From Raillietiella orientalis (Eukaryota): DNA of 64,000 nucleotides. Of the stretch, positions 1 to 58,154 are shown piece after piece; the stretch's first letter is position 1; each line of letters starts with the position of its first letter. The notes beneath the pieces are model-generated. The model saw only the letters and a list, made by a program, of their open reading frames with translations, did no database searches and was not told the DNA's origin. The translations under genes and the position numbers were made by a program. The stretch is from positions 62,001-126,000 of the forward strand of contig JAYWIR010000076.1 in assembly GCA_036172245.1 (NCBI GenBank). The letters run 5' to 3'.

Positions 1-652
1 GCCCGAACCCATGGAGGTGGGCGAACAGGTAGGCGCGACTCCACCTGCGGGTGATCCGGCCGACCCGCCGGAACGGTTGGAGGGGGAATAACGGGTGCCT
101 TCAGTACCTGTCCCCCCTCCCCCTCCAACTAGCGTCCCGCCCTAGCAGGTGGCGGACGCCGCATCACCGTTTTCCCAGGACTACCACCTGGGCTCGCCAG
201 TCGCCGTCGGATTTGCGCGGCCTATTGGAATGTCAACGGGCTGCGCGACGACGGCAACAGGAGACATACGGCCGACACCCTGCGTGAGCTCGACCTGGCG
301 CTGCTGCAGGAGATCCACGTGATCTCGGCGGCGGATGTCCAGAAAACAGAGACCATCGCGGGGGGTCGGCTGTACTGGCAATGCGGCTGCCGCAACACCT
401 GCAGGGTCGCGTTCTTCGTGAAGCCTGCCATCGACGCTGCCGTAAAGGGCATGCGGTTCGATGACGACGGTCGGATCGGCCAGATGATTCTCAGCTGGTC
501 CGACTCGATCGACCTAATCCTCACAAACGTGTATGGCCCCAGCGGCAAACAGGGGTACCGCGACCGCACCAAATTGCTGGAAACCCTGAAGCGCAACTGG
601 CTGGCGGATACCAATGTGCGAAAGGCTCACCTGATAGCGAGAGATTTCAATC
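1..652 (+). mobile_element. L1/Tx1-like element, subfamily B: ORF1 C-terminus and endonuclease N-half, interrupted by the insertion at 653
   Basis: Colinear with about 41180-41829; WNVNG, LQE and NVYGP motifs; breaks at the (G)DFN codons and resumes at 5517. Confidence 0.9.
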
Positions 653-656
653 GAGT

Positions 657-670
657 GCGGACGTGTTTTT
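657..670 (+). promoter_or_regulatory. Conserved 5' motif GCGGACGTGTTTTT, putative internal promoter element
   Basis: Recurs near the 5' ends at 11558-11570(-), 29269-29280(-), 38131-38142, 39528-39539, 55876-55888(-) and 60750-60760. Confidence 0.6.
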
Positions 671-730
671 CTTCGCTCTCGTCTCCGTGCTTTCATCCGC
701 TTCATCTTGGCGTCGTACATTTTGACGACG

Positions 731-2655
731 ATGTCGAACCAACCCGGAGCTACTGAAGTTGGAGGAACAGCATCCGGATCTGCAATCGCGGAACCGACGG
801 CCGCCTCCACTTCGTCTTTCTCGCCAATGGAGAGGAGTTTTGCTGACGTTGCTGCCACAGCAGCCGTCAAAGGGAAACCACTCGACGAGTCGGAGTTGCG
901 GGAATACCTAGCCCAAGGCTATAGACCTGCTCTCCGATATAAGGTGAGTGGTTTTCTTTCTGCGCGCGACGGGAATCAGTTCAACGGTGAACTGACCCGT
1001 GTTGGCGTGCGGGAGTACGACCTCCTCGCCATTATGCCCGTGAAGGATATGATCTATTTCAAGGTGCGTTGCAAAGACGCTGCACTTGTGCAACGCTTGC
1101 TGCGCACCCCGTTGTCGATACGTGGCCAGAAGTTCTTCCCGGCCTCCATGGACGACTCATTTGTGGCGGAGATTTTCGACATCGAGTCGGAAATCTCCGA
1201 TATTGATATTCGGAATGCGTTGGCGAAATTCGCCACGGTCCATGCGCTGTGGAGGGTGCGTAGCAACCTCAAGGACTTCCCGTCCATACACAGCGGAAGT
1301 CGCTGGAGTCCGGCTTACAATGCCGGACCGCCGTCTGCTACCCACCAAACTACAGGTGAAAGACACGGTCGTTCGCCTGCGGTCCGCGGGCAAAGTAAGA
1401 ACGTGCGAGCAATGAGGGAAAAAGGGGCATTGTTTGGATAAATGCCCCTCTGGAAAATGCCGTTATTGCAAACTATCCGGACACCAATTGAAAAATTCCC
1501 CGGATCTTTTGCGAAAAAAGGCAGCCGCGGAGATCCATCTTAAAAAACAAAGCGCGGATAAAAAAAAAAAATCTGCGAAAAACCTGGAGACCCTACGGCA
1601 CAAATTCCGTAAAAACGCGAAGCGGAATGTCGCCCCAAAGCAGCAGGATAACTCATACGCAAAGCCCTGCGCGCCCCCTCTCGCGGCAGGGAAGCCGCAA
1701 AAGAAAGGGTGCGGGGAATCCGGGGCAATGGTAAGTCCCCCTTATGCGCAATCGCTGTCCTTCGCAAGCACGCCCGGCTCTCTCGGAGTTCGAGCAACCG
1801 GCGGGGACGCCAATGGACAACGGCGGTAAGGACACTTCCAGTACCGTCAGATCCATTCCTTCACCTCCTGCAGTGGCTGAGAAGCCCAAATCAAGTAAGA
1901 AGGGTTGTGCCGTGTCGACTTCGAAAGTCGGCAAAAAAGAATCCGCGTCGCGATCCAACATCGCGAAAGCGGAGAAAAATCTCACGCCGTCGCAGTCGGA
2001 GAGCAAGCTCTCGACTGGCGCGGATGCCATGCCAACGAAGGCAGTAAAAGCCCTTCCGAAGGCAGCGTCCATGACGAGCGTGTCGAAGCCATCGAAAGTG
2101 CTCCCGTTTAAAGACGCGGATGGCTTCAAAGATGGCAATGGAGCACAATCTCCATTTACGGCGCCACGCGAAGTGAGGAACCGTAATGAAGTAAAGAAGA
2201 CTTCAGCAAAGGTCCCTCGTGCAACTGCGCGTGAGCACGCTGAAAACGCGCGCGCCGGGAAAGCAGCCGTCACCAAAAGCGATGCTCTGGTGACGGAAAA
2301 CGACAACAGCTTAGCTGTCAATCCAGCAGAACCTGTCACTGCTTCGCGGAAGGCCGAAACCCGATCTAACATGAGCCGGTCGGACTCCGAAACGGATGCC
2401 GTTCCGATCACCGAGACGAGGACAACTCTTTGAAGAGCGTGTGCGCGCCGATCAAAAGTAGGCAGCCAGGCAACGCTCGCCACGAAGCAACGCGAAGTCT
2501 CCACGAAACCCGACGGGGTTAAGCCTGGCGTGGAGGCATTACATGCATGCAGCACGACGGAGGACGGTGGCGACCTTCCCCTCCAGCCAGTCGTGCTGCT
2601 CGCCGTCTGCTCGCCGGATAAAGCGAGCAAAAAGCCGTTACCTTCCCAGCAGTAA
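731..2655 (+). pseudogene. ORF1 gag-like nucleic-acid-binding protein (frameshifted)
   Basis: Pieces 707-1441, 1434-1829 and 1744-2433; knuckle remnants CEQ*GKKGHCLDKC and CRYCKLSGHQLKNS; ends in a TAATG overlap. Confidence 0.8.
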
Positions 2656-5203
2656 TGCGGGGAATCGCGTCTTCTTGTCGTCTGTCCGTAACGTGTTGGA
2701 ACGTGAACGGACTACAGAACGACGAGAAGAGGCGATTAGTAGCCAACGCCCTGCGCCCCTTCGAGCTCGCGCTGCTGCAGGAGATTCACGTAATCTCCGA
2801 TGAGCAGGCAGCCGAAATCGAGGAGCGCGCAGGCGGAACGCTACATTGGCGGTGCGGCGGCGCACACACGTGCGGCGTCGCGTTTCTGGTAAGAGGAAAA
2901 ATGGCGGAAGCGGTGCGTACTGTTCGTTTCGATGACGACGGACGGATAGGCCAGCTTGTCATCAAGTGGTCCGAGTCCATCGATCTCGTCGTTACGAACG
3001 TCTACGCGCCGAGTGGCTCTCGCTACCTCGAAGAAAGGGTAGCTTTCTTTGGTGTGGTGCAGAGCCACTGGCTCAACAACTCCGGCTTCCAAGTGGCGCA
3101 CCTCGTCGCTGGGGTCTTCAACGTCCGCCTGCTCTTCGACGATTGGAGCCGCCCGAGGGAGCGCGCGCTGCCCATCGAGATGTGCGCGTCCGTGCACGCC
3201 GCCAACTTGATGGTCAGCAAAACTGGAATGAAAAGATCACTCGATCACGTTTTCCTCGATAAAAACCTGCATTCGCGTGTGGGTTGGAGAGGATGATTGT
3301 TGACTAGGCTTTCTGACCACCACATGTTGGAGTTTGAGATCCTTCCGCCAGGCAGGAAGCGTCCGTTGCAAAACTGGAGGATGCAGGCGGATTGGCTTAG
3401 CCAACCGGAGGCTGCGGAGCATCTACGTTGATACCTCCGAGGCTTTGTCATTCAAGAACTTGCGGACTGGGACGATCTCAAAAGTTCTGTCCGCGAGTTC
3501 TGCTGCCAATTCCCCTTGCACCGGCTTCCACGCGGTTTCGTAGAGGGCGTGGCCAACAGTAGAGACTTTCTGCAGGCCCGCACGTCTTCAGGACGCGTGG
3601 ATGTCGTGCGTCTCGCAGAGTACAAGGCGAGGGCCGAGCGCTAGGTCTGGCAGTCCGGAGCAGCATGCCTGTTGGACGACAAGGGCCAGGAATGTTCGGT
3701 CCCAGCTGAAGTACGCCGCATTGTGAGACGCTACTTATCCTCTCTGTACGCGGAATCCCCGACGGAAGATATTCTTTCTGAGATACTCCTGTCTCAGTAT
3801 GCTCGTGTTGTCGGCGAGGAGGAACGCGAACGTCTCAACGAGCCCTTCACGGCGGACGAATTTTCGTCCGCCATCGCTGGGCTGAAGAGACGAAAGGTAC
3901 CAGGGGAGGATGGGCTCCCTGCAGAGTTTTATCAGTGCTTTGCAGTGGAGCTCATTCCATTGATGCTGAAACTCGCGACGCTGATGGGTGAATCCGGGAA
4001 TATCCCGGATTCCTTCCGCTCAGCGAACGTGCGTCTCCTGCCGAAAGGCGGAGACTTGCGTCAACTTAACAACTGGCGTCCGATCACCTTGGTGAACTCG
4101 GACGTCAAGTTGTTTTCCAACCTGTGGTTCGCGCGGTTAGGAAGTATCGCGGAATCTGTGGTGAGCCCGGAACACACCTACGCGGTTCCGGGACGTTCCA
4201 TGGAGGCAAACATCCTTTTCGCGCGTACATGGATGCAGCTGCAGGAAGTTGTGGCGCAGCAAAGCCAGGCTGCTACGAAAGTCACTGCCGCAGGAAAGAA
4301 GAACAGGCGCCGATGGCAGGAGGGAACGCCAGGTGCCTTGGCGGTCGCGGTCGATCTCCACAAGGCGTCGACTGCTTAAACCAGAAGCTGCTTTTGCAGC
4401 TTAAGGAACGTCTTGGGTTCCCGGCGAAACTCCTGCTGTATTTGGACCTCCACCAGGACGAGGTGAAGTTTTCTACCCTGGCTGCCACGCTTCTTGCCGC
4501 AGCGCTGTCTGCCCTCAGGTCAAGAAACGACAGTTACCAACCGGCAAGGTGGGAGGTTTCCTGCACGATAGCGGGAAAAACCAAACTCCTTGGCGCCTGG
4601 AAGACGAGTGAGTTGGCGGACGCCGCCACTCCTCGTGTTACTGCAAAGGGACTCCTCCGGTGGGCAGAAGAACTTGCTGTCACCCCCGAAGAACTTGTAG
4701 TCCCTCCACAGTGTATTGACAGTTCGCTGCTCCCCCTTGCTTGGAAACAAGCCGTGGTGCTTTTCGTTCACTGGGGTTTTCAGTGCAACGAGAGGTGGTA
4801 TCTTGACTCCGGGGGACTTGCGTTTGCGAACTGCGTTCAGTGCGGATAGACGGAGTCGATTCCGCACCTACTTCTGGACTGCGGTGTCCTACAAGGACTG
4901 TGGCGTAGGCTGGCAACAGCACTAATGCATCCCGTGGACACCGCAAGAGACTTGTTGCGACGATTCTTCACGCCGAGCGGGCTGTCACTAAGCGCAAGGA
5001 TTCCAACCATCGGGTGCATACGCGCGATAGTTTCAGTCCGCCAGGCGTTGCTAATCAACGGACAGCACCAAGAGGTAATCAGCAAAGCATCCTTCTACAT
5101 GGGAGCATCCGCTAGATGGCCTCATTTGACAGAGGAGACAAAAAGGAATCTCCCCGCAATATACCGCCGGTTTACACACGCTCAGCAGCGGCCAACCCGG
5201 TGA
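2655..5203 (+). pseudogene. ORF2 endonuclease/RT, disrupted; the RT segment containing YADD is deleted near 4445
   Basis: WNVNG, LQE, NVYAP, LDHVF, SDH, PGEDG, WRPITL and DLHKA motifs, then a jump to the C-terminal region with the CVQCG finger. Confidence 0.85.
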
Positions 5204-5516
5204 TCATTGCCCTACCCTCCACAAACTAATTTTGTATTTTCTTTTTACACCCGCGTCCCCATAGGCTCCGGAACATTTCAGGTGCTCATCGTTTAAATCC
5301 CCGTGGGTACGGAGCCTAACCAAAAACCCGTTACCCTTCCCTCCAGTTTTTGATTTTTGTTTGTTTCCCTTCATTCCTCCCACGCTGCCAGCGGTTTGTT
5401 TACCAGGCCTGCGTGCCGGTGCTTTTTCTATGTTCTTTGTCGTACTGTTGCTTGGGAACATTGTCCCTGACCAGTTTATTATTATTATTAAACTCCCCGG
5501 CGTGACCTTGTAATAA

Positions 5517-5901
5517 ATTTCAATCTCCGCCTGCTAACAGGTAAGCCAGAAACACAAGAGAACGCGATGAACAAGTTGTGCGCCGCCATGCGTGCGCGCA
5601 ACTCGTTCGCGGGTGAGACGGGAATGGTCCGCAGCATCGACCACGTCTTCCTCGACGCTGACCTGTGTTCACGGGTCGGCAAACGGGGGAAGATTGCCTC
5701 GACGCTGTCGGACCATTCCCGGATAATTTTCGAGGTGCCGCCTCGGGACAAGTGACCGCCATCCAGGGACTTACGTCTCCCCGGGTACTGGACGCGACTC
5801 TCAGGTGCAAAGGTACACCTTCGCGAATACCTGATAGGCGTCACGCTCCGGAATCTCCATTGAAACCCGGTTCGTGGAACGTCTTCCGCCGGGATTCGGT
5901 G
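5517..5901 (+). mobile_element. Continuation of the subfamily B element (endonuclease C-half), ending at the 'GFG' junction
   Basis: Colinear with 41821-42244 apart from a short deletion; IDHVF and SDH motifs. Confidence 0.9.
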
Positions 5902-6106
5902 TTATCACCCGGGTACGCCCGGGGCGTTTATTAATAAACTTTACATGCGTGGTACAAGGCCCCACCACGGCCGTAAACACAGGACCTGTCGGGACACCGG
6001 GACGCAGTCCGGCGTGGCACTCCCCGACAGCGAAGGGGGATGGGGATAAGACAAAAAGTAAAATAAAAAGAAACAAACAAAACGAAGTTGGAGGGCAGGG
6101 AAGGGA

Positions 6107-9100
6107 TCACTGTTCGCTGTGGAGAGGGCCCATCCGTCGAAGGAAGCCCTTGAGGTCAGTCCTCATATTCCCCAGTTGGGGCCATCCGGCAGCTCTTCGC
6201 AAGAAGCGTTGGGCATATGGGATGACATCCCTCGCGTGTTGACCCACTCCTTCCTTGTTGGTGTCGCTTCATGCCGCCACGATGCCTCGGACGCAGCACA
6301 AGGTTGCAAGGGCTGCGGCTGCCTGCAGGGCGTCCTTCACGAAGAGGGGCCGAAGAACGTCTCTGAGGGTGGTGCCCGTAGGGAGCCCGTAGGGAGCCCT
6401 CCGACCATTTTGGGAACGGTCGTCCCGAACCGTTCCCAAAATGGTCGGAGGGCAGCACAATCCACAATAAGGTGGGAGATTGATTCCCGCTCCCCGCACC
6501 TGGCATACGCAGAATCCACAGCTCCCCTCGTCCAGTGCTAGCGGCTCGCGTTGAAGGGTAGACCCCAGTGCAACAGGAGCAACGCCGACTCTTTCCACTT
6601 AAGAGGCAGGATCCTGGATTCCTGAAGAAGCGGGGGCCAATTCAGCACATCCATAGGGATGGCCAGCAGCTCGCCCCATCTTCTTAGTCCTCGCGGCTGG
6701 ACGCTCGGGGTCGTGGCGTTTGCCAGTTCTCCTGTTGTCCAGCCGCTGATCAACTTTTCGCGTCCCTCGATGCAGCAGGAGACTTGCCACCTTGGCGTCC
6801 GGCTGCTGTGAAGTGCCCTCTTCAGGAATTGCAGCGCCGTAGCTAGACAGGTCGTCTCTGCCCACGTGCATCTTGCTGGACTCTCCAGGAGATTCCGCAG
6901 CGTGCAGCGGGCGTAGGGGCTGCATCGGAGACGATTCCACGTCTCGTGGCTTGTCTTGTTAACCACTGCCCACGTTCCAATATTTTCCTCCAGCCAGGCG
7001 GGGGAGTTGGCGGGGCAGCAAACCATCCAGCTGTTCTCCTCGGCCAATGTTGCCATGCGCCCGAGCAGTAGGCCGCATCTTCGCATCTTCCGGCCACGGC
7101 TGAGAAGAAAAGACGCGAGTCCATCGCACAGGGACACACGGCTGGCCAGGAGGCGGGCTGGAGTGCACCAAGGGGTGCACCACATCTTCACTGCGATGGC
7201 GAGGGTTCGCCACCGCAGCTGCTTCTCCACGCGCTCCACCGTCAGGAGGCCAAGACCGCCGTCCCGACGCGGAGCGCACAAGTCCTTCAGTGGGAATCGC
7301 GGCCTCCCCTTGCCCCAAAGGGCGATACGGAGGAGGTCCTTCGTCCTCTTCTTGGATTCCACGGTGGGAGGGCAAACAAAAAGCAAGGGGCGGAGGATGG
7401 GGGCCGCGAAGGCGTTCCAAACCGCGGCCCGTTCCGGCAAGTGGAACTTGCCTTCCAGGAACGGGCCGATCGCCGTCTCGACTTCTTGGAGGCAGCTGGA
7501 CCACGCTTCCGCAGGGGAGTAGTCCCTCAACGGCACACCAAGGTACTTGAAGCACCTCGCCGTGGGGATCCCCAGACGGACCCAGTCCTGCTGCCCTGCC
7601 CACGCCGCACCTGTTGGCACAACCGACGACTTCGCCCTGTTAATCTGCAGTCCGGTCCCGCGGCTGAGCAGATCGAAGAAGTCTCCGACCGCCTTTGCCG
7701 GGGTGGACATTGACAACAAGAGCAGAAGATCGTCGGCGTACGCTGCTACGGCGGGCGTCCCGGGGCACGAGCTCGGCAAGGGGGCCAAAGTCACCCTCTA
7801 CGCTCTCAGCACCAACTCAAAGTAGGTGCTAAAGTGCAGGGGGCTGAGGCTGTCGCTCTGCCTTATGCCTTGCCGCACCGGCACGCCATACACCTTTTGT
7901 CCACTGAAAGAAATTGAGATTATCGCGTTCCGCCAGCAAGAGCGCAGGTAGGTAATCAAGGAGTGTGGGAAGCCCATGCGACCCAGAAGCTCCAAGAGGA
8001 GTTCCTGGTCAACACAGTCGAATGCCTTATGGAGGTCGACTGCGATCGCTAAGGCCCCCTTCCCGCATGAGGGTCCCTTCCCTGTCCCACTGGCGGCCCC
8101 AAAGTAGGGTTGCAAATTTTCCCTTTCCCTTCTTTCTTACTCCGCTGCGCGTGAATCCATGTGCTCGCGAAGAAGAGGTTGTCCTCCATACTTCGCCCGG
8201 GAACAGGGTACGTCTGCTCCGGGCTAATTATGGAATTGGACACCTGCCCCAATCGCGAAGCCCACAGCCCGGCAATTAACTTGGCGTCCGTGTTCACAAT
8301 CGTGATCGGACGCCAGTTGCAAAGTTTTCTGAGGTCTCCTCCCTTCGGGAGGAGCCTCACCGTGACTGACCGAAACGAGGAGGGAACATCGCCTTCGTCC
8401 CGGATTCGCCTTGTCAGCTCGAGCACCAAAGGGGCCACCTCTTCCGCGAAACTCTGAAAGAACTCCGCAGGCAAGCCGTCCTCCCCTGACGCCTTACGCC
8501 TCTTGAGCCTTTAGATATAGGCGAGAATTTCACCGGTCGTGAAAGGCTCATCGAGGTTTTCTCTCTCCTCCTCCCCTATCGCCACGGAACCACTCATGAG
8601 CAATCGCCGCGAGGCGTCATGTTCCGGTGGTGTTTTGGCGTAAAGGGAGGAAGAAAAACACCGCACGAGATTCCGTACCGCACACGGGGACGAACGCTCC
8701 CGGCCCATGTCATCCAGCATGCTGGCTGACCCGGATTGCCAGGCTTGTCGCTCGGCTCCGGCGCGGTATTCGGCCAGGCGACGGACATTAGGGTTCCTCT
8801 CGTGACGACGCGCGTGCAAATACGCGCGTTCGTTGCGAGCCTTTTCGCCGAATCCCTGGGGCAGACGTTGCACAGGGAACTGTTCGCAGAACTCCCGGAC
8901 CGAGTCCTTAAATAGGTCCCAATCCGCGAGACTCTGGAGGGTGACGCCTCGCAGGAATTCGCGAAGATGTTCTTCCGCTCCTGACAGGCTCGTCCAGTCC
9001 CCTAACATACGCCAATCCCTGGATGGCGGTCCCTTGTCGCGCGGGCGCATCTCGAAAACTAACCGGGAATGGTCCAACAGCGTCGATCCAAGTGTCCCTC

Positions 9101-9726
9101 GTTTTCCGACCCGTGTGCACAGGTCTTCGTCGAGGAAGACGTGGTCCACGCTGCTGACCATCCCGCTTATTTCTGTCAACAAGTTGCGCGCGCGCATGGC
9201 GGCGCACAACTCGTTGATCGCGTTACTCTGTGCTCCGGGCTGATGTGAGAGCCCACGGACGTTGAAATCCCCTGCTATCAGACGCCTTTCGCACGTCCGC
9301 GTCCACCAGCTATTCGCGCTTCAAGGTTTCCAGTAACGCGTTGCGCTGCTGGTATCCCTGTTTACCGCTAGGAGCGTACACATTGGTGACGATAAGGTCG
9401 ATCGAATCGGACCATCTGAGAATCAGTTGGCCGATCCGTCCGTCGTCCCCAAAGCGCACGCCCTTCACGGCCGCGTTAATGGCTGGCTTTAGGAAGAACG
9501 CGACCCCACAAGTGTTGCGGGCGCCGCATCGCCAGTACAACCAGCCTCCCGCAATCGTTTCGATCTCCTGGGCGTCTTTTGCGGTGATCACGTGGATCTC
9601 CTGCAAAAGTACCAGGTCGAAATCTCGCTAAAAGGCGGCTGTATCTCGTCTGTTTCCGTCCTCGCGCAGCCCGTTAACATTCCAACTGGCCGCGCGGATC
9701 CGACGGCGACAGGCGAGTCCAGGTGT
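6107..9726 (-). pseudogene. ORF2 endonuclease/RT/Cys-His finger (several stops and frameshifts)
   Basis: ORF pieces with LQEIH, NVYAP, VDHVF, WRPITI, DLHKAFD, RQSDSLSP and AYADD. Confidence 0.9.
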
Positions 9727-11476
9727 TATTCCTGGAAACCTGACGGTGGAGCTCCCGCCAGCTTTTTGGGCGGGTCGCTGCACGGGGTTGGCGTCTTGCC
9801 CACCAACTCCCCATCCTTCTTTCGTGCCGACATCTCCGGCTGCCCGTGCGAAGGGGGTGTTGTTCGTACCTGTTGGCCCACATCCATTGGTGCGGGTGGT
9901 TCAGGTTCGGCGGTTTCAGAGGTCATTGCTGACCCCTGGTTACTCTCCTCCATCGGATTCGCCTCCTCGTCGGCTTCCGCACGTGGGTGATGCCCGACTT
10001 GGGCTCCCACGCTGCCATCCACTGGTTCCTCCACCATTGGATCCCCCTCGCGCGGAGGCGCAATGCACCTTCGGGGTTTCTGGGATTTTCGCCCCGCTTT
10101 CCTTGGTGGTGCTTCCGCAGAGGAGGATGCACTTCCGGCTTCCCGGTCCGACTCACCTGCGGGGGCCACTTTAGCCGCTGCCGGCCTACGCAACCCCTTT
10201 CGCGAAGGGTTCTCGCGTTCGGCAAGCGTTCCCGCAAGTTCCTCGGCGGCCTTCTCGAAGGCTGCGTCCTTGGTTTCGGCGATTTTGTCGACCGGCTGAC
10301 CCTCTTCGCAAACGGGGGGTGGGTTTTTGTGCGCATTCGTCGGGGCGGGAAAATCGATCGAAGCCGTATCGCCTCCGGTGGTGTCCGCGGGAATTTCAAT
10401 GCGCTCCAGCGTAACCGTGCATTCTCGGAAAGTTTTTACGTGCGACACGGATTGAGCTTTTGTTCCGGCCGCCGCCTTCTCTCCTTTCTTCAGGACATGC
10501 TTGCCCTTTTTCTCTTTTTAAGGTTTGAATAGCTGCCAGCCATGTTTTCCCTCTGCGGTTTCGGGAAGATTTTTCTCCGATGCCGCGCTTGGAGCTTGGG
10601 TTATTGGCAGCTTTTCTCGGTTAGTTTCACGGTTTTCTAATTTTTCTTTCCCCGCGCGTTTCGCTTGCGTCTTTTTGGCGGCCGAGGAAATTGGGGTGGG
10701 GCGTTTAGGGCACACGCGACGGACGTGTCCCTTCTCCCCGCACAAGTAGCATACGATGTTCGGGCACCTCTTACGAATGTGTCCGACCGCATCGCAGTAG
10801 CCGCAATACCGTGGCTTGCCAGCATACCAGAGGTCTACTGGTTCTCCCGCGACCTAAAGTTTGTGGGGTAGCTTCGCTTTGTTTTTTGGGGTGACGCGTG
10901 CCGAGCGAGGCCCCCGAAGTGGCGTCCGTAGCCCTGAAAGATTGTGTGCTACGGCCACAGCGCGTGTACGTCCCCGTACTTACTTAGTTCTGCTTTTACG
11001 GCAGTGCGCGTCATGCGCTTGGATATTCCTGACAAGTGGACCACCACCGAGTGGTCCATTGACACCGGGAAGATCTTACGGCTGTCCATGATCAGCGGGG
11101 TATTTATGAGGCGAACGGCTAGGCTGATGCTCTTGCACACAAGCTCAACCCGCTGCGCCCAGCTGAGCACGCACAGACCTTCCAGATCTTCCTCACGGAT
11201 ATTAGCATTTTGAAGCGCTCTGCTGAAAGAGCGCGCCGTGTTTCCTTCAAACAAAGGGCCTACCTTGTATACAAGCGATGGCTTCTATTCAGAAGCCCGA
11301 TAGGCGGCTTCCTCGGCCATAGCCTCCGCACTGAGGGCGGCGACCATTTCACTCCAAGTCTTCGCCGTCTGCGAAGACGTTCCAGGGACTATTGCCCCTA
11401 TAGCTGTAGGTCTCGTGGTAGGACTTGCCTCTTCCACAACTACATCCATCGCGGTGTCCTCTGGCACGGCTGCCAT
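9726..11476 (-). pseudogene. ORF1 gag-like protein (disrupted)
   Basis: Starts MAAVPEDTAM; knuckle CYLCGEKGHVRRVC; Pro/Glu-rich C-terminus ending GFQE*. Confidence 0.85.
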
Positions 11477-11589
11477 CGGACACCGACGACCCACACTTTA
11501 CACTTGACTACACTAAAAACTCCGGTTGCTTCCCAGACAAGCGCTGGCGGAGCGCCTAAAACACACGTCCACCCACACCAGGTTTCAGG

Positions 11590-12537: not shown

Positions 12538-14949
12538 TCTAAGTTGCTTGCCAAGCTTTGGGCTGAGCGACTGGGACGGGTGGCGGAATCCGTGGGAAGT
12601 CCGGAGCCGACATACGCTGTTCCCGGACGAAGCATGGAGGCCAACCTGTTCCTCGCCAGCACATGGTGGCAGTTGCAACAAAGCGATGATCAGGGAGGTC
12701 AAGAGAATCCTGGATTCTCCTCTGACCAGTAAGGGGACGCCCTTCATGGAAGAACCGCGCCCGGTGACCTTGCGGTCGCAGTCGATCTGCGTAAAGCGTT
12801 CGATTGCGTCGACCAGGAACTGCTTCTGGAGCTCCTGGAACGCTTGGGATTCCCGGCCGTCTAACGGGCTTACCTGCGCTCCTGCTGGCGCTTCGCTCTA
12901 ATAAACATCTCTTTTAGCGGCCGGCACGTGTACAACGTGCCGGTTCGGCGTGGCATAAGGCAGGGTGACAGTCTGAGCCCCATGCTCTTCAGCATGTACT
13001 TCGAGCTGGTGCTGAGGGCATACAGGGAGACTCTTGCAACCCTGCCAAGCTCGTGTCCCGGCACGCCTGGCGTGTCGGCCTACGCCGACGACCTTCTGCT
13101 CCTGCTCCCCGGGTCCACCCCGGCGTCGGCGCTCGAAGATTTCTTTGAGTTGATGCGCCGCGGGACGGGCCTCGAGGTGAACAGAGAGAAATCTTCCATC
13201 GTTCCATCATCAACACAACTTTTCAACCATACGGCGTGGGTCGGACGGCCGGAGTGGATCCGCTTGGGGATCGCCACGGGCAGGTGCTTGAAGTACCTTG
13301 GCGTTCCGTTGGCGGACTTCTGCGTTGCAGAATCCTGGTCCGACCGTCTCCAAAAGGTGGAGTTGGCGATCGGCCCGTTGCGGAACGGCAAGTTTTTCTT
13401 GCAGGTGCGGGCCGCGGTGTGGAACGCGTTCGCGGCCCCCCTCCTTCGCCCCTTACTTTTTGTTTGCCCCGCCCCTTCCATCATACGGAGACGGACCAAA
13501 GCTTTCTTGTCGACTGCCCTTGGGGCACAGCGAGATCGCGTGTCTGACTGAAAGACTGTTGCGCTCCACGCAGGGATGGTGGCTTGGGCCTTCTTACGTT
13601 AAAGTGCATCCAACTTCAAACAAGAATTCGAAAGTTAGCCCTTGCCGCTAGCTTATGGATGACGCCATTGTGCGATCCGGCACGGCTCCTCGCCAGAAGA
13701 GCGACCGGTTGCGCAGGATTGTCCTCGATCCTCGTGGCCTACCAGCGCAGCCTCTCCAGCTGTGGTCCCCCTTTGCGCCAGATGGTCGCCCTGATGAGGG
13801 AGAATACCTAAATCTCCTGCATCCCCGCGTACTGCACTGCGTGGCTTCAGGAGTCAGCTTCCGCGTGGGCTAAGATCAAGGGCACGAGCGAGGCGGAATA
13901 CAACTGCCTACGACGAGGACCGTACGCTCGACAGCCGCTGCAGGATATCATCAACACGCCCCGGAAGTTCCTGTGGGCTTCTTTCAGCCCCCTTGTCCCC
14001 GTTCTGTCCTACCCTAAAAACAGTAGGAGCAGCAACGAGCTGGCATCGTGGGAAGTGTGCTGCCTTATCCGAGGCAGGAAAAAACCTTTAAAGGCGTGGA
14101 CGAATCGGGAGCTCACGGACGCTGCCACCCCGAGCGTCCCGCCTCACGGACTTGCGCGCTGGGGTGAGCTGCTCGCAATACCTCCGGAGGAGGTGGAGTG
14201 TCCCCCAGCGTATTGGGATTGCGGCACACTTCCGTTGAAGTGGCAGGAGACGGCGTTGCTATTTCTGCACTGGGGACTGTTAAGCAGAGCACGCCTGTCT
14301 CACTGGACACTGGGGAATATGGATGCCAGCTGTGTCGAGTGCGGAGAAAGAGAAACCTTCCCGCATCTCACCCTCGAGTGTGTCGCCCTGGATGGACTCT
14401 GGAGTAGAATCTTCCCAATCCTCCATCTTCCAGTAGGCGACCCTAAGGAAATTTACCGTCGCCTCTTTCTGCGTGACGGCCTGCGCCCCGCTGCGTCTCT
14501 AGCAGTCCTCTGCTGCGTGCGCGGCATTGTGCAAAGGTGGCACGCCAGAAGAAGAGGCCCAAGATGCAGGGACGCCATCCACTGCACAACGATCTCTTCA
14601 GAGACGGCGACAAGGTGGCGTCTACCTTTCACAGTTAAAGCAGAACTTGACTGCATCCTCAACAGGATACGGAGGACCGACCCAGGCGCCCAGTGATCCC
14701 TTCCCTGCGCCCCCCTCTCCCCATACAACTGTTTCCCTCCCCGTTATCTCTCTTTTTGTTTGTTGTTGGTTCAGTTTTCCCTTCCCATGCGCCTCGGGAA
14801 TGGACCTAACCGGTCTATGCACCGCAACCGACACGTCAACCAAGTTAAGAAAACCAAGTGTTTCCCACAATTAACTTTTGAAAGACTTTATTATCTAATT
14901 TTTGTAGAAAATTAGAATAATAAATGCCCCGGCATATCCGGGTGGCAAA
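12538..14949 (+). mobile_element. 5'-truncated element, subfamily G (RT to 3' end; ORF2 stop at 14696)
   Basis: DLRKAFD, RQGDSLSP, AYADD and CVECGERETFPHLTLEC; ends AATAAATGCCCCGGCATATCCGGGTGGCAAA. Confidence 0.88.
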
Positions 14950-16660
14950 CGTCGGCTGGAGCCGAGCATTCCCGGTCCTGGTCGTCGAGCAGAACTGTCG
15001 CCCCTGACTGCCAGACCTGGCGCTCGGCCTTAGCCTTGTACTCGGATGATCGACCAACGACCGCGCGCCTGGAAAAGGAGCGGGCCTGCAGAAAATCTCT
15101 GCTGTTGGCTACGCCCTCTCCGAAGCCGCGTGGAAGCTGTTGCAAGGGAAACCGGCAGCAGAACTCGAGGACCGATCTTTTCAGATCGTCCCACTTTTCG
15201 AGCTCACTTATGGCAAAGCCGATGAGGTACTGACGAAGATGCTCAGCCGCCTCCGGGTGGCTTAGCCAGTCTGCCGGCATCCTCTAAAAACAGTTTGGAG
15301 GCCCCTTGCCTGGCGGGAGCAACTCGAACTCGAGCCTGTTGTGGTCTGAAAGCACAGACGGCACGGGACCTCTCCGACCCACTCAACAGAGCAAGTGTTC
15401 ATCAAGGTATACGTGGTCCGGCGTTGCTGCCATAACAGGGTCGCTAGCGAACAAGTTGCACGCGTGCACGGACGCGCACATCTCTTTCGCTAGCGAGTTT
15501 TCCCTTTTGTGGGATCTATTCTCGGAGGGAAGGTGGACGTTAAAGTCCCCCGCAATGAGATGGGCCACAGTAGAATGAGATCGAGTGAGCCACTGGCTTT
15601 GAAGGGTACCGAAGAACTCAATCCTTTTGGCCCATCGTCCAGCACCGCTCGGCGCGTACACGTTGGTTACGACAAGGTCGATCGAGTCCGACCACTTGAG
15701 TACAAGCTGTCCCACTCGGCCTTCCGTGTCGAAACGAACGCTGCGCACCGCTCTTGCCAAAGTTCCTCGCACGAGGAAAGCGACGCCGCACCTATAAAGT
15801 AGCGTTCCGCCCGCGCGCCGTTGGATTTCGGCAGCCTGCTCACCGGAGATGCTGTGAATCTCCTGCAGGAGCGTCAAGTCGAAGGCGCTCCGAGCGTCAG
15901 CCACTAGTCGCCTCTTCTCCTCGTGTTGGAGCCCGTTGACGTTCCAAGACGTTACGGCAACACGACGAGAAGACGCGATTGCCCTCATCACGGCTGGGAA
16001 AGCGAGGCCGTGGTGCTCGCCTCACCCGGCGAGCGGGCAGTAAGCAGCACGACGGGCTGGAGGGCGCGGTCGCCACCGGCCTCAACTGTGCTGCACGTAA
16101 TCGGGTGCTCCTCCCCGGGTGCAGAACCTGTGGGTTCCGGTGTGAGCACTCCTTGCTCCGCGGCGAGTGTGTCACGCCTCAGGGGATTCAGCCCTGCGGG
16201 CGCTCGCTCCCGCGCGAGTTACGCGTCGTTCAGCTGCGTTATGGGACTCCTTTGCGAAGTCTGATGCTCGCACGATCGACGTGCGCTTGCATCCGTCCGA
16301 TTGCACCGGAATGGTCTTCTCGGCGGTCACAGAAGCGGACTTCCACGCGTTGAAGGCGCTGGCTTTTTCCTTGGAAGAGGCATAAGCCGCGCGTGTTTTC
16401 GTATTCCCGCGACTGCTTTTTCCTTTGGAAGAGCTCAGGGATGGATGTTGCGAAGCTTTTTTTGGAGATTTTTCTTTCCTCCTCTCCACAACCTTCCATT
16501 CGCCTTCGCGATTTCCGGAGGCTTCCGCGACAGTAGTTGCGGAAACCTCCGGTATTTTCGCTGCGTTCTCTGGGGGCGTTGCTTTCGCTACGCCTTTTAA
16601 AGGCGGCAACGGAGTCACCTTCTTGACAGTCGGGAGATCGCTCCTCTCCTGCCCAGTCGG
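14950..16660 (-). mobile_element. 3' part of an F-related element (ORF1 C-terminus, endonuclease, linker); host of the tandem pair
   Basis: ORF 15383-15991 with WNVNG, LQE, NVYAP and GDFN; TGATG overlap at 15986-15990; joins 27928 across the TSD. Confidence 0.88.
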
Positions 16661-16831
16661 TGAACTTCCTCCGCGGCTCAAAGTATTGTGCTCTTGACAA
16701 CTAATTAGTTAATTGTGCTCGTGTGTGCCCGGAGAGGGGAAGTTTTCCAGAAGAAACAAAAAAAAAGAAGCGGCGAGGACATCGCGGCAAAAGACCTGCA
16801 GTGGTCCCGTGCAGCAAGACCAGCTGCCAGG

Positions 16832-18620: not shown

Positions 18621-18633
18621 GACTTCCCCTTGT

Positions 18634-21600: not shown

Positions 21601-22146
21601 TACGGGAGTGAACGGTTCAACCTGTTATCGATCGGAACGACGCTCTGGAGGAGTGACCTTCCACCGGGCACCCAGGATGACCTCCTGATGTTTTATCACG
21701 GAGGAATCCAAAGTGGGTCCCGATTGCAGCACTTCACAGGAAGACGGGAAGACCGAGACTGCGCAGCATGTGGAGACGACGACACGAGACTTCACGTCTT
21801 GACGTGTCCCACACTGCTGCATGACTGGCTGATTCTGAAAAGGATCATAGGACTTACCAACAAGTCCGTTATGGAGATCCTCGCCGGGATGTTTCATGGG
21901 GATGGTAATGTTCCCTGTTACAATCCCATGGTGAGGACGACCCTCTTCATCACCGCCATACTTGTGCGGTGGTGGAAAATGAGGAAAGCCAGGAGAGCCG
22001 CACCACCGATGGAGATCCTACAAGGGCTCTTGAAGAGGGAAATCGGCATCAGGAACTGCGGGAAGATCCACGCCTGGACGTACTGATTCATCCTGAAGAG
22101 GATCCAGGACGACGCCCGGGACCATCCAGCTGGAATTCCCCCCTGA
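18634..22146 (+). pseudogene. ORF2 APE endonuclease/RT in a single frame, with premature stops at 20365 and probably 22084
   Basis: WNVNG, LQES, GDLN, IDHV, SDH, WRPISI, RQGDSLSP, AYADD and CAACG; copy 2 has CAG and CGA at the two stop positions. Confidence 0.92.
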
Positions 22147-22465
22147 AAAGCAGAACTCTAGTGCAACCCAAGGACCCCCAAGTGCAAAATGTTTGTATTG
22201 AGTGAATGAGAGTGCGAATGTAAATTTTGTATTTTTATAGAAAAATAAACTTACCCCACCCCTTGTGGGACTTGGGGAAACCTGCCGAGTCGGTGAACTT
22301 GCTCCGCGGCTCGAAGTATTGTGCGCTTGACAACTTAATCAGTTCATTGTGCTCGTGTGTGCCCGGAAAGGGGAAGTTTTCCAGAAGAAACAAAAAAAAA
22401 GAAGCGGCGAGGAGATCGCGGCAAAAGACCTGCAGTGGTCCCGTGCAGCAAGACCAGCTGCCAGG

Positions 22466-41361: not shown

Positions 41362-44300
41362 CACCTGGGCTCGCCAGTCGCCGTCGGATTCGCGCGGCCT
41401 GTTGGAATGTCAACGGGCTGCGCGACGACGGTAACAGGCGAGATACAGCCGACACCCTGCGGGAGTTCGACCTGGCCCTGTTGCAGGAGATCCACGTGAT
41501 CACCGCGGCAGACGTCCAGGAGATCGAGACGATCGCGGGGGGTCGGCTGTACTGGCAATGCGGCATCCGCAACACCTGCGGGGTCGCGTTCTTCGTGAAG
41601 CCGGCCATCGACGCTGCCGTGAAGGGCGTGCGCTTCGATGACGACGGTCGGGTCGGTCAGCTGACTCTCGGCTGGTCGGACTCGATCGATCTGATCGTCA
41701 CGAATGTGTACGCCCCAACCGGTCAAAAGGGATACAGCAAGCGTACCAGGCTGCTTGAATCCCTGAAGGGCGACTGGCTGGCGAACACGAGCGTGCGGAA
41801 GACTCACCTGATAGCGGGAGATTTCAATCTCCGCCTGCTAACAGGTGAGCCGGAAACACAAGTGAACGCGATGAACGAGTTGTGCGCCGCCATGCGTGCG
41901 CGCAACTTGTTCGCGGGTGAGAGGGGAATGGTCCGCAGCATCGAGCACGTCTTCCTCGACGCTGACCTGTGTTCACGGGTCGGCAAACGGGGGAGGGTTG
42001 CGTCAACGTTGTCGGACCATTCCCGGTTAATTTTCGAGATGCGGCCTCGCGACAAAGGACCGCCATCCAGAGACTGGCGTCTGCCGGGGGACTGGACGCG
42101 ACTCTCAGGTGCGAAGGAACACCTTCGCGAATACCTGAGAGGCGTCACGCTCCGGAATCTCCAAGACTGGGACCTTTTTAAGGAATCGGTCCGGGAATTC
42201 TGCGAGCAGTTCCCCCTGGACCGCCTGCACTCCGGATTCGGCGAGGGTCCTCGCAACCATCGGGGCTATTTACAGGCCCGTAGGTACGAGCGAACCCCTA
42301 ATGTCCGTCGCCTGGCCGAGTACCGCGCCGGGGCCGAACGCCAAGCCTGGCAATCCGGGTCGGCCAGCTTGCTGGACGAGCAGGGCCGGGAATGTTCGTC
42401 CCCGGCGTCGGTACGGCATCTTGTGTGGAGTTATTATTCCTCCCTTCACGCAAGTGCGCCCCCGGATCAAGATGCCTCTCGGCTCTTGCTTCCGGATGGT
42501 GCCCCGGCAATAGGGGAGGAGGACTCGTTAAGCCTCGATGAGCCTTTTACCACCGGCGAAATTCTCGCCGGTATCAAATGGCTCAAGAGGCGTAAAGCTC
42601 CAGGGGAAGACGGCTTGCCCGCGGAATTCTATCAGAGCTTCGCGGAAGAGCTGGCACCCCTGCTGCTTCAGCTGACAATGCTGATCCGAGACGAAGGCGA
42701 TGTTCCCGCCTCGTTTCGGTCAGCCAGAGTCAGGCTCCTTCCGAAAGGGGGAGACCTTAGGAATTTGAACAACTGGCGTCCGATCACGATTGTGAATACG
42801 GACGCCAAGTTGGTTGCCGGGCTATGGGCTTCGCGTCTGGGGCAGGTGGCAGAATCCATAATTAGCCCGGAGCAGACATATGCTGTTCCCGGGCGAAGTA
42901 TGCATGCCAACCTCTTCTTCGCGAGCACATGGATGCACGCGCAGAGGTTTCAAAAGGAAGGGAAAGGGAAAATCGGCAACCCCACTTTGAGGCCGCCAGC
43001 AGGGCAGGGAATAGACTCCCGGGCGGGGAAGGGGGCCTAAGCGCTCGCAGTCGATCTCCATAAGGCGGTCGACTGTGTTGACCAGGGGCTTTTGTTGGAG
43101 CTCCTGGGTCGCATGGGCTTCCCACCCTCCTTGATCAACTTCCTGCGTTCCTGCTGGCGCCATGCCATAATTTCCGTCTCTTTCAGCAGTCAGAAGGTGC
43201 ATGGCGTGCCGGTGCGGCGGGGCATCAGACAGGGAGATAGCCTGAGTCCCCTGCTCTTCAGCACCTACTTTGAGTTGGTGCTGAGAGCCTACAGGGTGAC
43301 TTTGGCCTCCTTGCCTAGCTCGTGTCCCGGCACGCCCGCCGTAGCAGCCTATGCCGACGACCTTCTGCTCCTGTTACCTATGTCCACCCCGGCGAAGGCG
43401 GTCGGAGACTTCTTCGAACTGCTCAGCCGTGGGACCGGACTGCAGGTCAACAGGGCGAAGTCGTCGGTGGTGCCAGTAGGTGCGGCGTGGGCAGGGCAGC
43501 AGGACTGGGTCCGTCTGGGGATCCCCACGGCGAGGTGCCTCAAGTACCTTGGTGTGCCGTTGGGTGACTACTCCCCTGCCGAAGCGTGGTCCAGCTGTCT
43601 TCAAAAAGTTGAGACGGCGATCGGCCCGTTCCTGGAAGGCAAGTTTCACTTGCCGGAACGGGCCGCGGTTTGGAACGCCTTCGCGGCCCCCATCCTCCGC
43701 CCCTTGCTTTTTGTTTGCCCCGCCCCCAGACAATGCAAAAAGAGGACGAAGGACCTCCTCCGCATCGCCCTTTGGGGCAAGGGGAGGCCCCGAGTCCCTC
43801 TGCAGGACTTGTGCGCTCCGCGTCGGGACGGCGGCCTTGGCCTCCTGACGCTGGAGCGCGTGGAAATCCAACTGCGGTGGCGAACTCTCGCCATCGCAGC
43901 GAAGATGTGGAGCACCCCTTGGTGCGTTCCGGCCCGCCACCTCGCCAGGCGTGTGTCCCGATGCGAAGGACTCGCGTCGTTTCTTCTGTGCCCTGGCCGG
44001 AAGATCCGAAGATGCGGCCTTATGCTCGGACGCATAGCAACCTTGGCGAAGACGAACGGTTGGATGGTTTGTGGCCCCGCCAACTCCTCCGCCTGGTTAG
44101 AGGAGTCTGCTGGCACATGGGCTAAGCTGAACCGGAGGAGCGAAAACCACATGAACTGCCTGCGAATCGGCCCATACGCCAACCGCACCCTGCGGGAAAT
44201 ACTGGAATTTCGCCGGAGTCGCAGGTGGGCGTTGACGACCCCCCTTGCTACGGCGATGCCCTACCTCCTGAGGGCGCTTCAGGATTGCCAGAAGCCGAGG

Positions 44301-44954
44301 TGGCAAGTCACCTGCCAGATCGCAGGCAGGGAGATGTTAAGCGGCTGGACCACAGGAGAACTGGCGGACGCCACGATCCCGAGCGTCCAGCCGCGTGGAC
44401 TAATGAGGTGGGGCGAGCTGCTCGCCATCCCTACGGATGTGCTGAAGTGGCCCCCGGTATTAAAGGAATCCAGGATCCTGCCCCTTAAGTGGCAAGAGTT
44501 GGCGTTGCTTTTGTTGCACTGGGGTCTACCCTGCAACGCGCGCCGCTTCCACTGGACGAGGGGAGCTGTGGATCCGGCGTGTGCCAGGTGCGGGGAGCGG
44601 GAGTCGCTTCCCCACCTTATTGTGGATTGTGCTGCCATCCGACCCCTCTGGGAACGGTTCGGGGCGACCCTAGGGCTCCCTACGGGCAGCACCCCCTGAG
44701 ACGTTCTTCGTCCCCTCTTCGTGAAGGACGCACTGCAGCCAGCCGCAGCCATCGCAGCCTTGTGCGGTGTCCGTGGAATCGTGGCGGCATGGAGCGACGC
44801 CAATAACGATGGTGTGGGTACACACGCGAGGGATGTCATCCCATACGCCCAACGCTTCATGCGGAGTGCTGTCGGATGGCCCCAACTGAAAAATATACGG
44901 ACGGACCTCGAGGGCTTCCTTCAACGGATGGGCCCTCCTCACAGCGTTTAGTGA
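41361..44954 (+). pseudogene. ORF2 endonuclease/RT (about 1200 codons) in a single frame, with premature stops at 43038 and 44697 and no ATG start
   Basis: ORFs starting at 41481, 43092 and 44721 share one frame; EN motifs, AYADD and CARCGERESLPHLIVDC. Confidence 0.92.
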
Positions 44955-45133
44955 TCCTTTCCCTGCCCTCCAACTTCTTTTTCTCTGTTTATTTTTTTTA
45001 TTTTTCTTTTTGTTTTGTCCCCATCCCCCTTCGCTGCTGAGGAACGTTACGCTGGGCTGCGTCCCGGCGTTTTGGCAGGTCCAGTGTATATAGCCGTGAG
45101 CGGGGCCTTGTACCGCGGATGTAGAGTTTTAGC

Positions 45134-45164
45134 AATAAACGCCCCGGGCGTACCCGGGTGTAAA
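45134..45164 (+). terminator. 3' terminus: AATAAA followed by a GC-rich stem-loop and AAA, with no poly(A)
   Basis: AATAAACGCCCCGGGCGTACCCGGGTGTAAA directly abuts the TSD. Confidence 0.75.
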
Positions 45165-55909: not shown

Positions 55910-56736
55910 GTGTGAACGCAAACTGTGCTCGGAGAGGGGAGTAGGCAACCCTCGCGCACCTCGCGCACGCTCGCCGCGAATCAACGCGAAGTCTCCACAA
56001 ATTCCGACGGGGTTAGGCCTGGCGTGGAGGCTTCACACGCATGCAGCACGACAAACGACGGTGGCGACCATCCCCTCTAGCCAGTCGTGCTGCTCTCCGT
56101 CTGCTCGCCGGACAAAGCAAGCAAAAAGCCGCCACCTTCCCAGCAGTAATGCGGGGAATCGCGTCTTCTCGTCGTCTGTCCTAACGTGTTGGAACGTGAA
56201 CGGACTACAGAACGACGAGAAGAGGCGATTAGTAGCCAACGCCCTGCGCCCCTTTGATTTTGCGCTCCTGCAGGAGATTCACGTAATCTCCGACGAGCAG
56301 GCAGCCGAAATCGAGGAGCGCGCTGGCGGAACGCTACATTGGCGGTGCGGCGGCGCACACACGTTCGGCGTCGCGTTCCTCGTTAGAGGAAATATAGCGT
56401 AAGCGGTGCGTAGTGTTCGTTTCGATGACGACGGACGGATAGGCCAGCTTGTCATTAAGTGGTCCGAGTCCATCGATCTCGTCGTTACGAACGTCTACGC
56501 ACCGAGTGGCTCTCGCTACCTCGAAGAAAGAGTAGCTTTCTTTGGTGAGGTGCAGAGCCACTGGCTCAACAACTCCGGCTTCAAAGTGGCGCACCTCGTC
56601 GCTTGGGACTTCAACGTCCGCCTGCTCTCCGACGATTGGAGCCGCCCGAGGGAGCGCGCGCTGCCCATCGAGATGTGCGCGTCCGTGCACGCCGCCAACT
56701 TGATGGTCAACGAACCTGGAATGGAAAGATCGCTTC
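55910..56736 (+). mobile_element. Subfamily F fragment (ORF1 C-terminus, TAATG at 56147-56151, endonuclease)
   Basis: Near-identical to about 2458-3243. Confidence 0.9.
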
Positions 56737-57269
56737 ATCTGCCCATCTGGTTTCAGGCGAACGTTGAAATTGCCTGCAACCAGATGGGCATCTTGCACGC
56801 CTGCTTCGGTCAGCCAGTCGCGCCGGAGTGCAAGGAAAAACTCTTTTCTCGCCCTCCTGTTCATCAGGTCCACGCCGCGTACACTTTCGTGACGATCAGT
56901 TCGATCGAGTCGGACCACCTGAGAGTCAGGTGGCCGACATGACCGTGATCGTCGAACCGCACGCCCCGAGCCGCGGCCTCGACGGCTGGCCGAAGCAGGT
57001 AGGCGACACCGCAACTTTTCGGTCTCCCACACCTGTACCACAGCCGCTCCCCTGAGATCCGTTCGATCTCTTGCTCTTGTTCTGCAGAGATCACGTGGAT
57101 CTCCTGCAGCAGCGCAAGGTCGTAGGACTCCAGAAGGGTGGCCATGTCTCGTCTCTTGGCGGCGTCTCTCATGCCGTTCACGTTCCAAACGGCGATGCGC
57201 AGACGACGGCGGGAGAAGGACCTTAATCACCTTAATCTTCCCGGCATTACTGCTGGGAAGATTAAGGTG
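56737..57269 (-). mobile_element. Inverted D/E-type endonuclease fragment starting at the ORF1/ORF2 junction
   Basis: RRLRIAVWNVNG and LQEIH; similar to 29290-29633 and 45533-46040. Confidence 0.85.
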
Positions 57270-57282
57270 TAGGGGAATAGAA

Positions 57283-57731
57283 GGGTAATCGGCAAAGGAT
57301 CTTCCTATATGGAAGTAGCCGCCAGATTGCCCCAATTGACCAAGCATACGAAAAGAGATCTCGCTAGCATACGCCGACGGTTTACAGACGCTACCCAACA
57401 GCGCACCCGGTGAACCTTTCCCCTCGCCCCCTTCAAATTTTTTTCTTTTTTCCACTTCCGCCCAATTAGGCTCCGGAACATTTTAGGTGCTCTCTATTTG
57501 AATCCCCGTGAGTGCGGAGCTTCACCAAGGACCCGTTACCCCTCCCTCCAGATTTTTTTTTTTCTTTTGTGTGTGTTTTATCCCTCTACTCCCTCAGTGT
57601 TGTTGGAAGCGGTTTGTTAACCAGGCCTGAGTGCCGCTAACTTCTCTTTGCTCCTTGTCATTTCTTTGGTTAACGACATCGTCTTTGACAGGTTTATTTT
57701 CAATAAGCGCCCCTGCGTGACCGAATGAAAA
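57283..57731 (+). mobile_element. Subfamily F 3' end (ORF2 terminus and 3' UTR)
   Basis: Similar to 5072-5516, including TAGGCTCCGGAACATTT. Confidence 0.85.
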
Positions 57732-58154
57732 ACTTCATCGTCCGCCTGCTGTCGGAAGCGCCCGACATCAGAGCACAACTGGTCAACGAGTCGTGTGCGT
57801 CGATGCACGCGCGCAACTTGTTGGCCAATGAAGCCCACGTGAGACGCAGAATCGACCACGTGTTCCTCGATAACCACCTGTGGACGCGGGTGGGGACTCG
57901 AGACGCACTTGCGTCGGAGCTGTCCGATCACCATCGGCTAGTGTTCACCATCCATCTGCGCGACAGAGGTCCATCCACCGAAGCGTGGCGCCTGCTGGGA
58001 GACTGGTTGCGACTCGCAGGAGCGGGCGAATATCTGCGTGCATTCCTGCGTGGTTGCGAACTGCAGACTCTTGCTCAATGGGACAAAATAAAACGCTCAG
58101 TGCGAGAGTCCTGCGACCAGTTTCCCCTCCATCAACATCCTTCAAGTTACGGCA
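57732..58154 (+). mobile_element. Subfamily J endonuclease C-half, bounded by the 'DFN' and 'GFG' junctions
   Basis: VRLLSEAPDIR, RIDHVF and SDH; homologous to 33358-33781 (reverse complement). Confidence 0.88.

Follow-up and report, generated by a model that had tools for sequence, protein, structure and literature searches.

Two F-type LINE insertions at one nucleotide of the catalytic G-D-F-N codons of other LINEs in a LINE cluster of Raillietiella orientalis

Introduction

Site-specific long interspersed nuclear elements (LINEs) are known for ribosomal RNA genes, telomeric repeats, small RNA genes and one DNA transposon, and Zepp-type LINEs, whose copies have poly(A) tails, are known to pile into their own copies. 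Here we describe a stretch of 64,000 nucleotides (nt) from Raillietiella orientalis (assembly GCA_036172245.1, contig JAYWIR010000076.1, positions 62,001 to 126,000 of the forward strand; hereafter the window), in which two members of an L1-like LINE lineage that we call F end at the same nucleotide, and in the same orientation, within the G-D-F-N codons of the endonuclease genes of other LINEs. All coordinates below are those of the window.

Tx1L of Xenopus laevis is described as a LINE with a sequence-specific apurinic/apyrimidinic (AP) endonuclease that integrates into the DNA transposon Tx1D (PMC1950540). F resembles Tx1L as an AP-endonuclease LINE with an apparently single landing site inside another transposable element, but whereas the target of Tx1L is a DNA transposon, that of F is the coding sequence of a sibling LINE. 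R1Bm is likewise described as having an AP-type, sequence-specific endonuclease, and lands in 28S ribosomal DNA (PMC1950540; PMC1919474). The R1 and R2 elements share with F the repeated, independent and uniformly oriented insertion at one nucleotide of a conserved multicopy target; their target, however, is a host ribosomal RNA gene, and the best structure match of the window elements is human L1. Human LINE-1 has the same order of endonuclease and reverse transcriptase (RT) as the window elements but, unlike F, carries a poly(A) tail and is promiscuous, with a TTTT/AA consensus (PMC1950540).

Zepp and ZeppL of green algae are presented as GC-rich L1-type LINEs that are confined to nested clusters and reportedly target copies already present (PMC8226300, PMC3446292), the clusters consisting mostly of 3' ends that result from 5' truncation (PMC8226300). 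Over the 64 kb that it spans, the window resembles these clusters in holding GC-rich L1-type LINEs in nested copies, but differs from them in its lack of poly(A) tails, its many full-length copies, its mixture of lineages, its base-exact landing sites and the different polarities of its insertions.

Results and discussion

The first of the two insertions, F1, is an F-lineage LINE of 4,864 bp on the plus strand (653-5516), flanked by two identical 9-bp copies of ATTTCAATC, at 644-652 on the left and at 5517-5525 on the right (both +). It interrupts another LINE, host 1, which is preserved on either side: its left part (1-652, +) is the 5' part of an X-like second open reading frame (ORF2), comprising endonuclease residues 1-173 and ending in the D-F-N codons (the DFN site), and its right part (5517-5905, +) continues with ORF2 residues 171 to ~320, up to an antisense insertion that is described below. 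X (39564-45160), the best-preserved copy in the window, served as the reference for our tblastn map. Its ORF2 matches host 1 with residues 1-173 at 133-651 and with residues 171-285 at 5516-5860, while Pfam finds Exo_endo_phos on the host 1 frame at 133-753. The left part of host 1 is 86% identical to 41181-41829 and the right part 92% identical to 41821-42163. The host 1 frame (133-753) reads ...H-L-I-A-R-D-F-N, with GAT TTC AAT at 643-651, and the duplicated stretch opens with base two of the Asp codon and closes with base one of the codon that follows Asn. F1 and host 1 both lie on the plus strand, and F1 is thus inserted in sense.

X itself is uninterrupted at this position. At 41812-41838 it reads GCGGGAGATTTCAATCTCCGCCTGCT, with the empty target site at 41821-41829 (+) and the G-D-F-N codons intact (GGAGATTTCAATCTCCGCC). 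Because X carries the empty site, the 9 bp at F1 represent a true target-site duplication, and the insertion was clean. As the GDFN motif aligns with G144-D145-F146-N147 of human L1 ORF2p, the target consists of codons for catalytic residues.

Although both of its ends are complete, F1 is defective. Remnants of ORF1 (689-1484) are followed by the ORF2 endonuclease (2622-3296), the N-terminal part of the RT (3645-4376), a C-terminal part (4517-5203) and the 3' untranslated region (UTR; 5204-5516). The first letters of F1 are GAGTGCGGACGTGTTTTT, and since GGACGTGTTT, with variants, also stands at the 5' ends of other subfamilies, we consider the 5' end of F1 to be complete. Its own endonuclease motif is GVFN instead of GDFN, frameshifts are present, and the RT core, corresponding to reference ORF2 residues 587-987 in tblastn, is deleted; no RVT_1 match was found on the ORFs of F1 with Pfam at E<=0.001. 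No ribozyme-like Rfam match was found at the 5' end of F1, where the sole hit was a microRNA at chance level (E=0.24).

The second insertion is represented by F' (57281-57731, +), the last ~450 nt of an F-like LINE, comprising the C-terminus of ORF2 and the 3' UTR. Directly after its end at 57731, host sequence restarts at 57732 with ACTTCATCGTCCGCC. This host, J (57732-58158, +), covers residues 171-319 of a J-type ORF2, begins with the A of its Asp codon (ACTTCATCG) and runs, like host 1, up to an antisense insertion. Its uninterrupted paralogue, 87% identical to it over 417 nt, lies on the minus strand, where it reads GGAGACTTCAACGTCCGC and has the empty target site GACTTCAAC at 33773-33781. 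Host J picks up at the A of GAY, base two of its Asp codon, in a register that matches the F1 case to the base. With a slash at the junction, the two termini align as GCGTGACC-TTGTAATAA/ATTTCAATC for F1 and GCGTGACC-GAATGAAAA/ACTTCATCG for F'. The F' sequence at 57284-57722 is 70.1% identical to F1 over 448 nt, as against 93.6% between F1 (positions 1821-2589) and F2, an internal F fragment at 55967-56741 (+); F' therefore belongs to a sister lineage, a subfamily other than that of F1.

Upstream of F' the locus is rearranged. F2 is broken in its S-L-D-H codons and joined, by a 2-nt overlap and with no filler, to an inverted 5' endonuclease fragment of a G-type LINE (56742-57275, -; 89% identical to 29276-29635), which stands in the place expected for the left half of host J. 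With this inverted fragment and F2 upstream, the 5' junction and the duplication of F' are not recoverable. Twin priming was considered for 56742-57731 and rejected, as the inverted fragment comes from a different subfamily (G, at 89% identity) and a gap of ~3 kb would be required. Joints between different copies in opposite orientation, each without filler, are found at 56741/56742 (2-nt overlap) and at ~29243-29262 (6-7-nt microhomology); they have the look of 5' junctions made by end-joining, or of rearrangements inside the nest.

Independence of the two insertions was assessed with a maximum-likelihood tree of ~340 nt downstream of the DFN site in 11 endonuclease copies. In this tree, host 1 is sister to the uninterrupted X (support 99/97) and host J is sister to its own uninterrupted paralogue (support 100/99). 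Retrotransposons are not excised precisely, so that, with empty sister paralogues on both sides, both insertions must be younger than the split of the host subfamilies and hence are separate events. Two diverged F sublineages have thus inserted independently at the same base and in the same polarity; for one of these insertions, the duplication is intact and a matching empty site is present. If insertion were random within hosts of ~5.5 kb, a second event at the same base and in the same polarity would be expected, by our own estimate, about once in 11,000.

The 3' UTR marker TAGGCTCCGGAACATTT has exactly two matches in the window (5262 and 57467), while shuffles gave a mean of 0.02 matches and none of 100 reached two. 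It is one of three conserved 3' UTR blocks that occur only at F1 and F', and both F-type 3' ends in the window (2/2) lie at the DFN site. Independent insertions at the same nucleotide and in the same orientation of a repeated target, as expected of a target-specific LINE, are therefore seen here, in a very small sample. The three blocks measure 17-22 nt and do not differ between the F-type 3' UTRs at 5262-5411 and 57467-57629, which are otherwise ~70% identical; they may form an element recognized by the RT. Consensus folding of the two 3' UTRs, with two sequences only, gave 0 compensatory changes in 27 predicted pairs.

The two insertions were first noticed in an earlier reading of the window made from its letters alone (the original prediction). 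What that reading observed we confirm; how it interpreted the observation is partly supported. The perfect 9-bp duplication and the empty site in X agree with its claim that the F element at 653-5516 duplicates the D-F-N codons of a 'B' host (our host 1) in sense orientation, and the alignment to human L1 ORF2p bears out its view that these codons specify catalytic residues. It had also placed a second 3' end of subfamily F, at 57731, in the same register of a J host; register and sense orientation stand, but the element is a 70.1% relative from a sister lineage and not a member of the same subfamily. As it had noted, only two F cases are visible, the marker and the other 3' UTR blocks being confined to two places. 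It further proposed that the motif is one which the host can hardly change; this, and with it any protection of the target from escape, is still only an idea. Synonymous positions already distinguish the two targets that were hit, and GVFN, GDFK or GDFY is found in dead copies. F elements also carry the target motif themselves (F2: GGGACTTCAACGTCCGCC) and so could land in their own kind.

In our view, the observations are best explained, with a fair degree of probability, if F is an L1-like lineage of retrotransposons without long terminal repeats that integrates sequence-specifically at a short stretch which, in this genome, falls within the G-D-F-N codons of the endonuclease genes of sibling LINEs. 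We infer that the endonuclease sets this specificity and that F is restricted to the DFN site genome-wide. The F endonuclease would nick the non-coding strand of the host ORF at a point opposite the G-A step of GAY, leaving a primer that ends in ...TTGAART-3' (...TTGAAAT-3' or ...TGAAGT-3'), from which F RNA would be copied by target-primed reverse transcription; a cut of the coding strand 9 bp downstream would then give rise to the 9-bp duplication and a sense copy. Since F lacks a poly(A) tail and could pair with the primer through its last A alone, specificity most likely resides in the endonuclease, and a read-through RNA with host sequence could act as an aid or an alternative.

Several points weigh against this explanation. 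There are only two junctions (n=2), which makes the explanation a lead rather than a result. F1 itself is dead (GVFN, RT core deleted), and an active source copy is not seen in the window. The F' junction comes without a 5' junction or target duplication, and F' is just 70% identical to F1. By our own count from tblastn, the window has 15 endonuclease copies with the DFN site, of which 13 are unoccupied. The core GAYTTCA occurs 21 times in the window, 8 times at DFN sites and 13 times elsewhere, so that a preference for a motif of 7-10 nt fits as well as a long, DFN-specific recognition sequence. A possible counter-example is F3, an F-like copy on the minus strand (ORF1 at 28382-29177, endonuclease at 14942-16095) that has been split by 11 kb of inserted DNA from a different LINE family and has a complete 5' end at ~29243 (-), its 3' end lying outside the window. 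The exact 5' end of F3 adjoins, through the 6-7-nt microhomology, a G-type copy truncated at its 5' end, and no DFN codons are found there; the 3' end of this G copy is set in RT motif A of a further LINE, within the D-L-H-K-A-F codons. F3 would thus originally have stood, in sense, in RT motif A codons and not at a DFN site, unless the G insertion deleted target DNA.

It is unlikely, though worth serious consideration, that F has no dedicated target at all, and that its endonuclease has a loose, L1-like taste for a short A/T-rich motif (~AAAT/C on the primed strand, the slash marking the nick) for which the DFN site is a hotspot, such motifs being rare in LINE DNA of 57% GC and the DFN codons among the few stretches to provide one. 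With GAYTTCA present just 21 times in 64 kb, and 8 of these at DFN sites, two landings at DFN would not be improbable; the elements ending in CCCGGGTG, described below, likewise show a hotspot and secondary sites with a short motif (14938, 32958), and the 5' end of F3 lies away from DFN. Against a loose preference, the two insertions agree in polarity and, to the base, in register, although their hosts share only 57.5% identity. Nicking would moreover still be sequence-specific, and the difference from an F lineage specific for the G-D-F-N codons would lie just in the length of the motif.

We find it more doubtful still that homology guides F to its site, such that the read-through host tail of an F transcript anneals to another LINE at a nearby break and fixes the 3' junction without any site-specific endonuclease. 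Read-through target sequence aids the precise insertion of R1, and F lies in sense inside a transcribed ORF, has no poly(A) tail and is followed, after the duplication, by ~10 nt (TCCGCCTGCT) that are conserved among hosts; nevertheless, the clean 9-bp duplication points to two staggered, positioned nicks, and no read-through transcript was seen, nor was an RNA run among the public runs listed. A single ancestral insertion, of which the F-in-host composite later spread by segmental duplication or gene conversion, is very improbable: BLAST does join 5074-5679 with 57284-57894 across the junction (68.6%), but host 1 and host J are far closer to their empty paralogues (92% and 87%, respectively) than to each other (57.5%, while the F 3' ends are 70% identical), and the empty paralogues, excision being imprecise, rule out an insertion that preceded the host split, which leaves old gene conversion as a slight possibility.

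If F is indeed specific for the G-D-F-N codons, a LINE that lands in the active-site codons of the endonuclease of other LINEs would represent a new class of target, and a case of parasite-on-parasite targeting in which active copies cannot lose the target. The F type and the CCCGGGTG type would then form a natural pair of related AP endonucleases in which to study how target choice evolves in L1-like enzymes. F-type targeting might also explain the build-up of LINE-only clusters, such as putative algal centromeres. Our literature searches did not turn up any LINE for which endonuclease codons of other LINEs are reported as the target.

Antisense landing sites and tandem insertions

Host 1 is interrupted a second time, just past its endonuclease domain, by a full-length X-like LINE that ends in ...CCCGGGTG and lies antisense to it (5906-11586, -). 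Elements ending in ...AATAAACGCCCCGGGCGTACCCGGGTG have inserted antisense at ORF2 residue ~320 four times, their last bases lying at 5906, 52103, 58159 and ~62265 (all -) next to host sequence that ends in ...GGTGTTAY. The four hosts are 57-75% identical and the inserts 69-91%; because the inserts are more alike than the hosts, the four insertions are independent. The original prediction was correct in that F differs from these elements in both target and polarity, but its term 'subfamily-specific' is too fine, as two lineages or more (X/B type and Y type) land at the antisense site.

Two more antisense 3' junctions of elements that end in CCGGGTG are found at 14938 (residue ~370 of F3) and 32958 (the D-L-H-K-A-F codons of RT motif A). 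The short motifs that precede them are alike, CGTTTGC and CGGTTTT respectively (...GYGTTRY up to the junction). This pattern suggests that the CCCGGGTG-type elements have a motif-specific endonuclease with one hotspot and secondary sites.

A distant LINE family (~28% amino-acid identity to X) forms a head-to-tail pair inside F3 (16648-22296 and 22281-27942; 91.7% identical). The sequence CTGCC is found before the first copy, between the copies and after the second, and with CTGCC around each copy, the pair looks like two insertions at one target site. Tandem transposon dimers have been described as arising by double insertion at a preferred site (McGurk and Barbash 2018, PMC5932611); the likeness to them lies in this pair (16648-27942, with its CTGCC flanks), which is from another family than F.

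Within the window, the reuse of fixed landing sites is the rule, and this setting strengthens our reading of the F insertions. A broader reading, which we put forward only tentatively, is that the window samples a self-contained community of LINEs, confined to one another's sequences, whose lineages have shared out the common LINE sequence among themselves as landing sites, one clade inserting in sense in the catalytic Asp/Asn codons and others in antisense behind the endonuclease domain. Were this so, active target copies would have to keep those residues and could not escape by mutation, and the nest could be a safe haven or a Zepp-like, centromere-like LINE cluster.

Make-up of the window

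The GC content varies between 52 and 63% across the window. Pfam was run on its 125 long ORFs, and all matches are to LINE domains (Exo_endo_phos, RVT_1 and zf-RVT); a single match to zf-CCHC is borderline and under Pfam's cut-off. Exo_endo_phos and RVT_1 occur together on single ORFs at 18469-20364, 24141-26063 and 41310-43037, and Exo_endo_phos is also found on F1, F2 and F3. X has an ORF1 of 458 amino acids with two CCHC knuckles and an ORF2 of 1,129 amino acids with one in-frame stop. With X as the query, tblastn identified ~25 fragments or whole copies on both strands, ORF1 and ORF2 matches being spread across the window. They fall into several diverged subfamilies, whose endonucleases are 46-80% identical in amino-acid sequence. 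No tRNA was found in the window, and an Rfam scan of it gave no family at gathering score.

Like AP-endonuclease LINEs of the L1-like type, the window elements have an N-terminal endonuclease followed by the RT in ORF2, and F has a target-site duplication and a defined 3' end without terminal repeats. The poly(A) or simple-repeat tail of L1 proper is absent, the F elements terminating in ...GTAATAA or ...ATGAAAA and the other lineages in ...CCCGGGTG. Among the PDB matches, the closest solved relative is human L1 ORF2p (E=3e-34), and the endonuclease structures of R1Bm and TRAS1 are absent from the matches at E<=0.01.

Relatives of these elements were sought beyond the window. The F 3' UTR marker pattern had 0 matches in metagenome contigs, and a profile of 7 endonuclease domains from the window found only 1 distant locus there (27% identity); in GTDB genome contigs, the endonuclease profile found only 3 distant loci (27-28% identity), in bacterial metagenome-assembled genomes, which have no bearing on the window elements. 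A word-indexed protein search gave 2 hits, and an exhaustive one gave only two relatives of >50% identity, both on short contigs. Among named database proteins, the nearest are LINE ORFs of animals, unclassified and of <=39% identity, and the ESM Atlas yielded generic RVT_1/zf-RVT clusters only. The top protein match (P0003; NCBI, Lepidochelys olivacea) is a gene model of 1,555 amino acids in which one N-terminal RT segment is repeated four times; it is probably an annotation artefact over tandem LINE fragments, and its score inflated.

One public sequencing run, X1, contains 27% of the sampled words, and its contigs are ~96% identical to the window. Two of them cross the ends of F1, one running from 623 into F1 (30 letters of flank) and one from F1 to 5535 (19 letters), both flanks being shorter than the 31 letters that we demanded of a bridging contig. 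A further contig corresponds to the empty-site joint 643→5517, with 9 ambiguous letters. The X1 contigs are weakly compatible with F in DFN codons there, and may represent the same locus in a relative rather than an independent case.

The 5' ends of the otherwise diverged subfamilies have a common motif, G(T/C)GGACGTGTTT, which is found at 653-680, 39527-39545, ~11560 (-), ~49385, ~55900 (-), ~38135, ~35950 (-) and ~29243 (-). It has no match in Rfam and may be a conserved 5' promoter or processing signal. Several elements are arranged head to tail, the 5' region of the next one starting 0-45 nt beyond the 3' end of the preceding one. Such joints are found at 45160/45161, ~49361, 35973 (-) and ~60700, and the flank typically opens with (A/T)AAAC.

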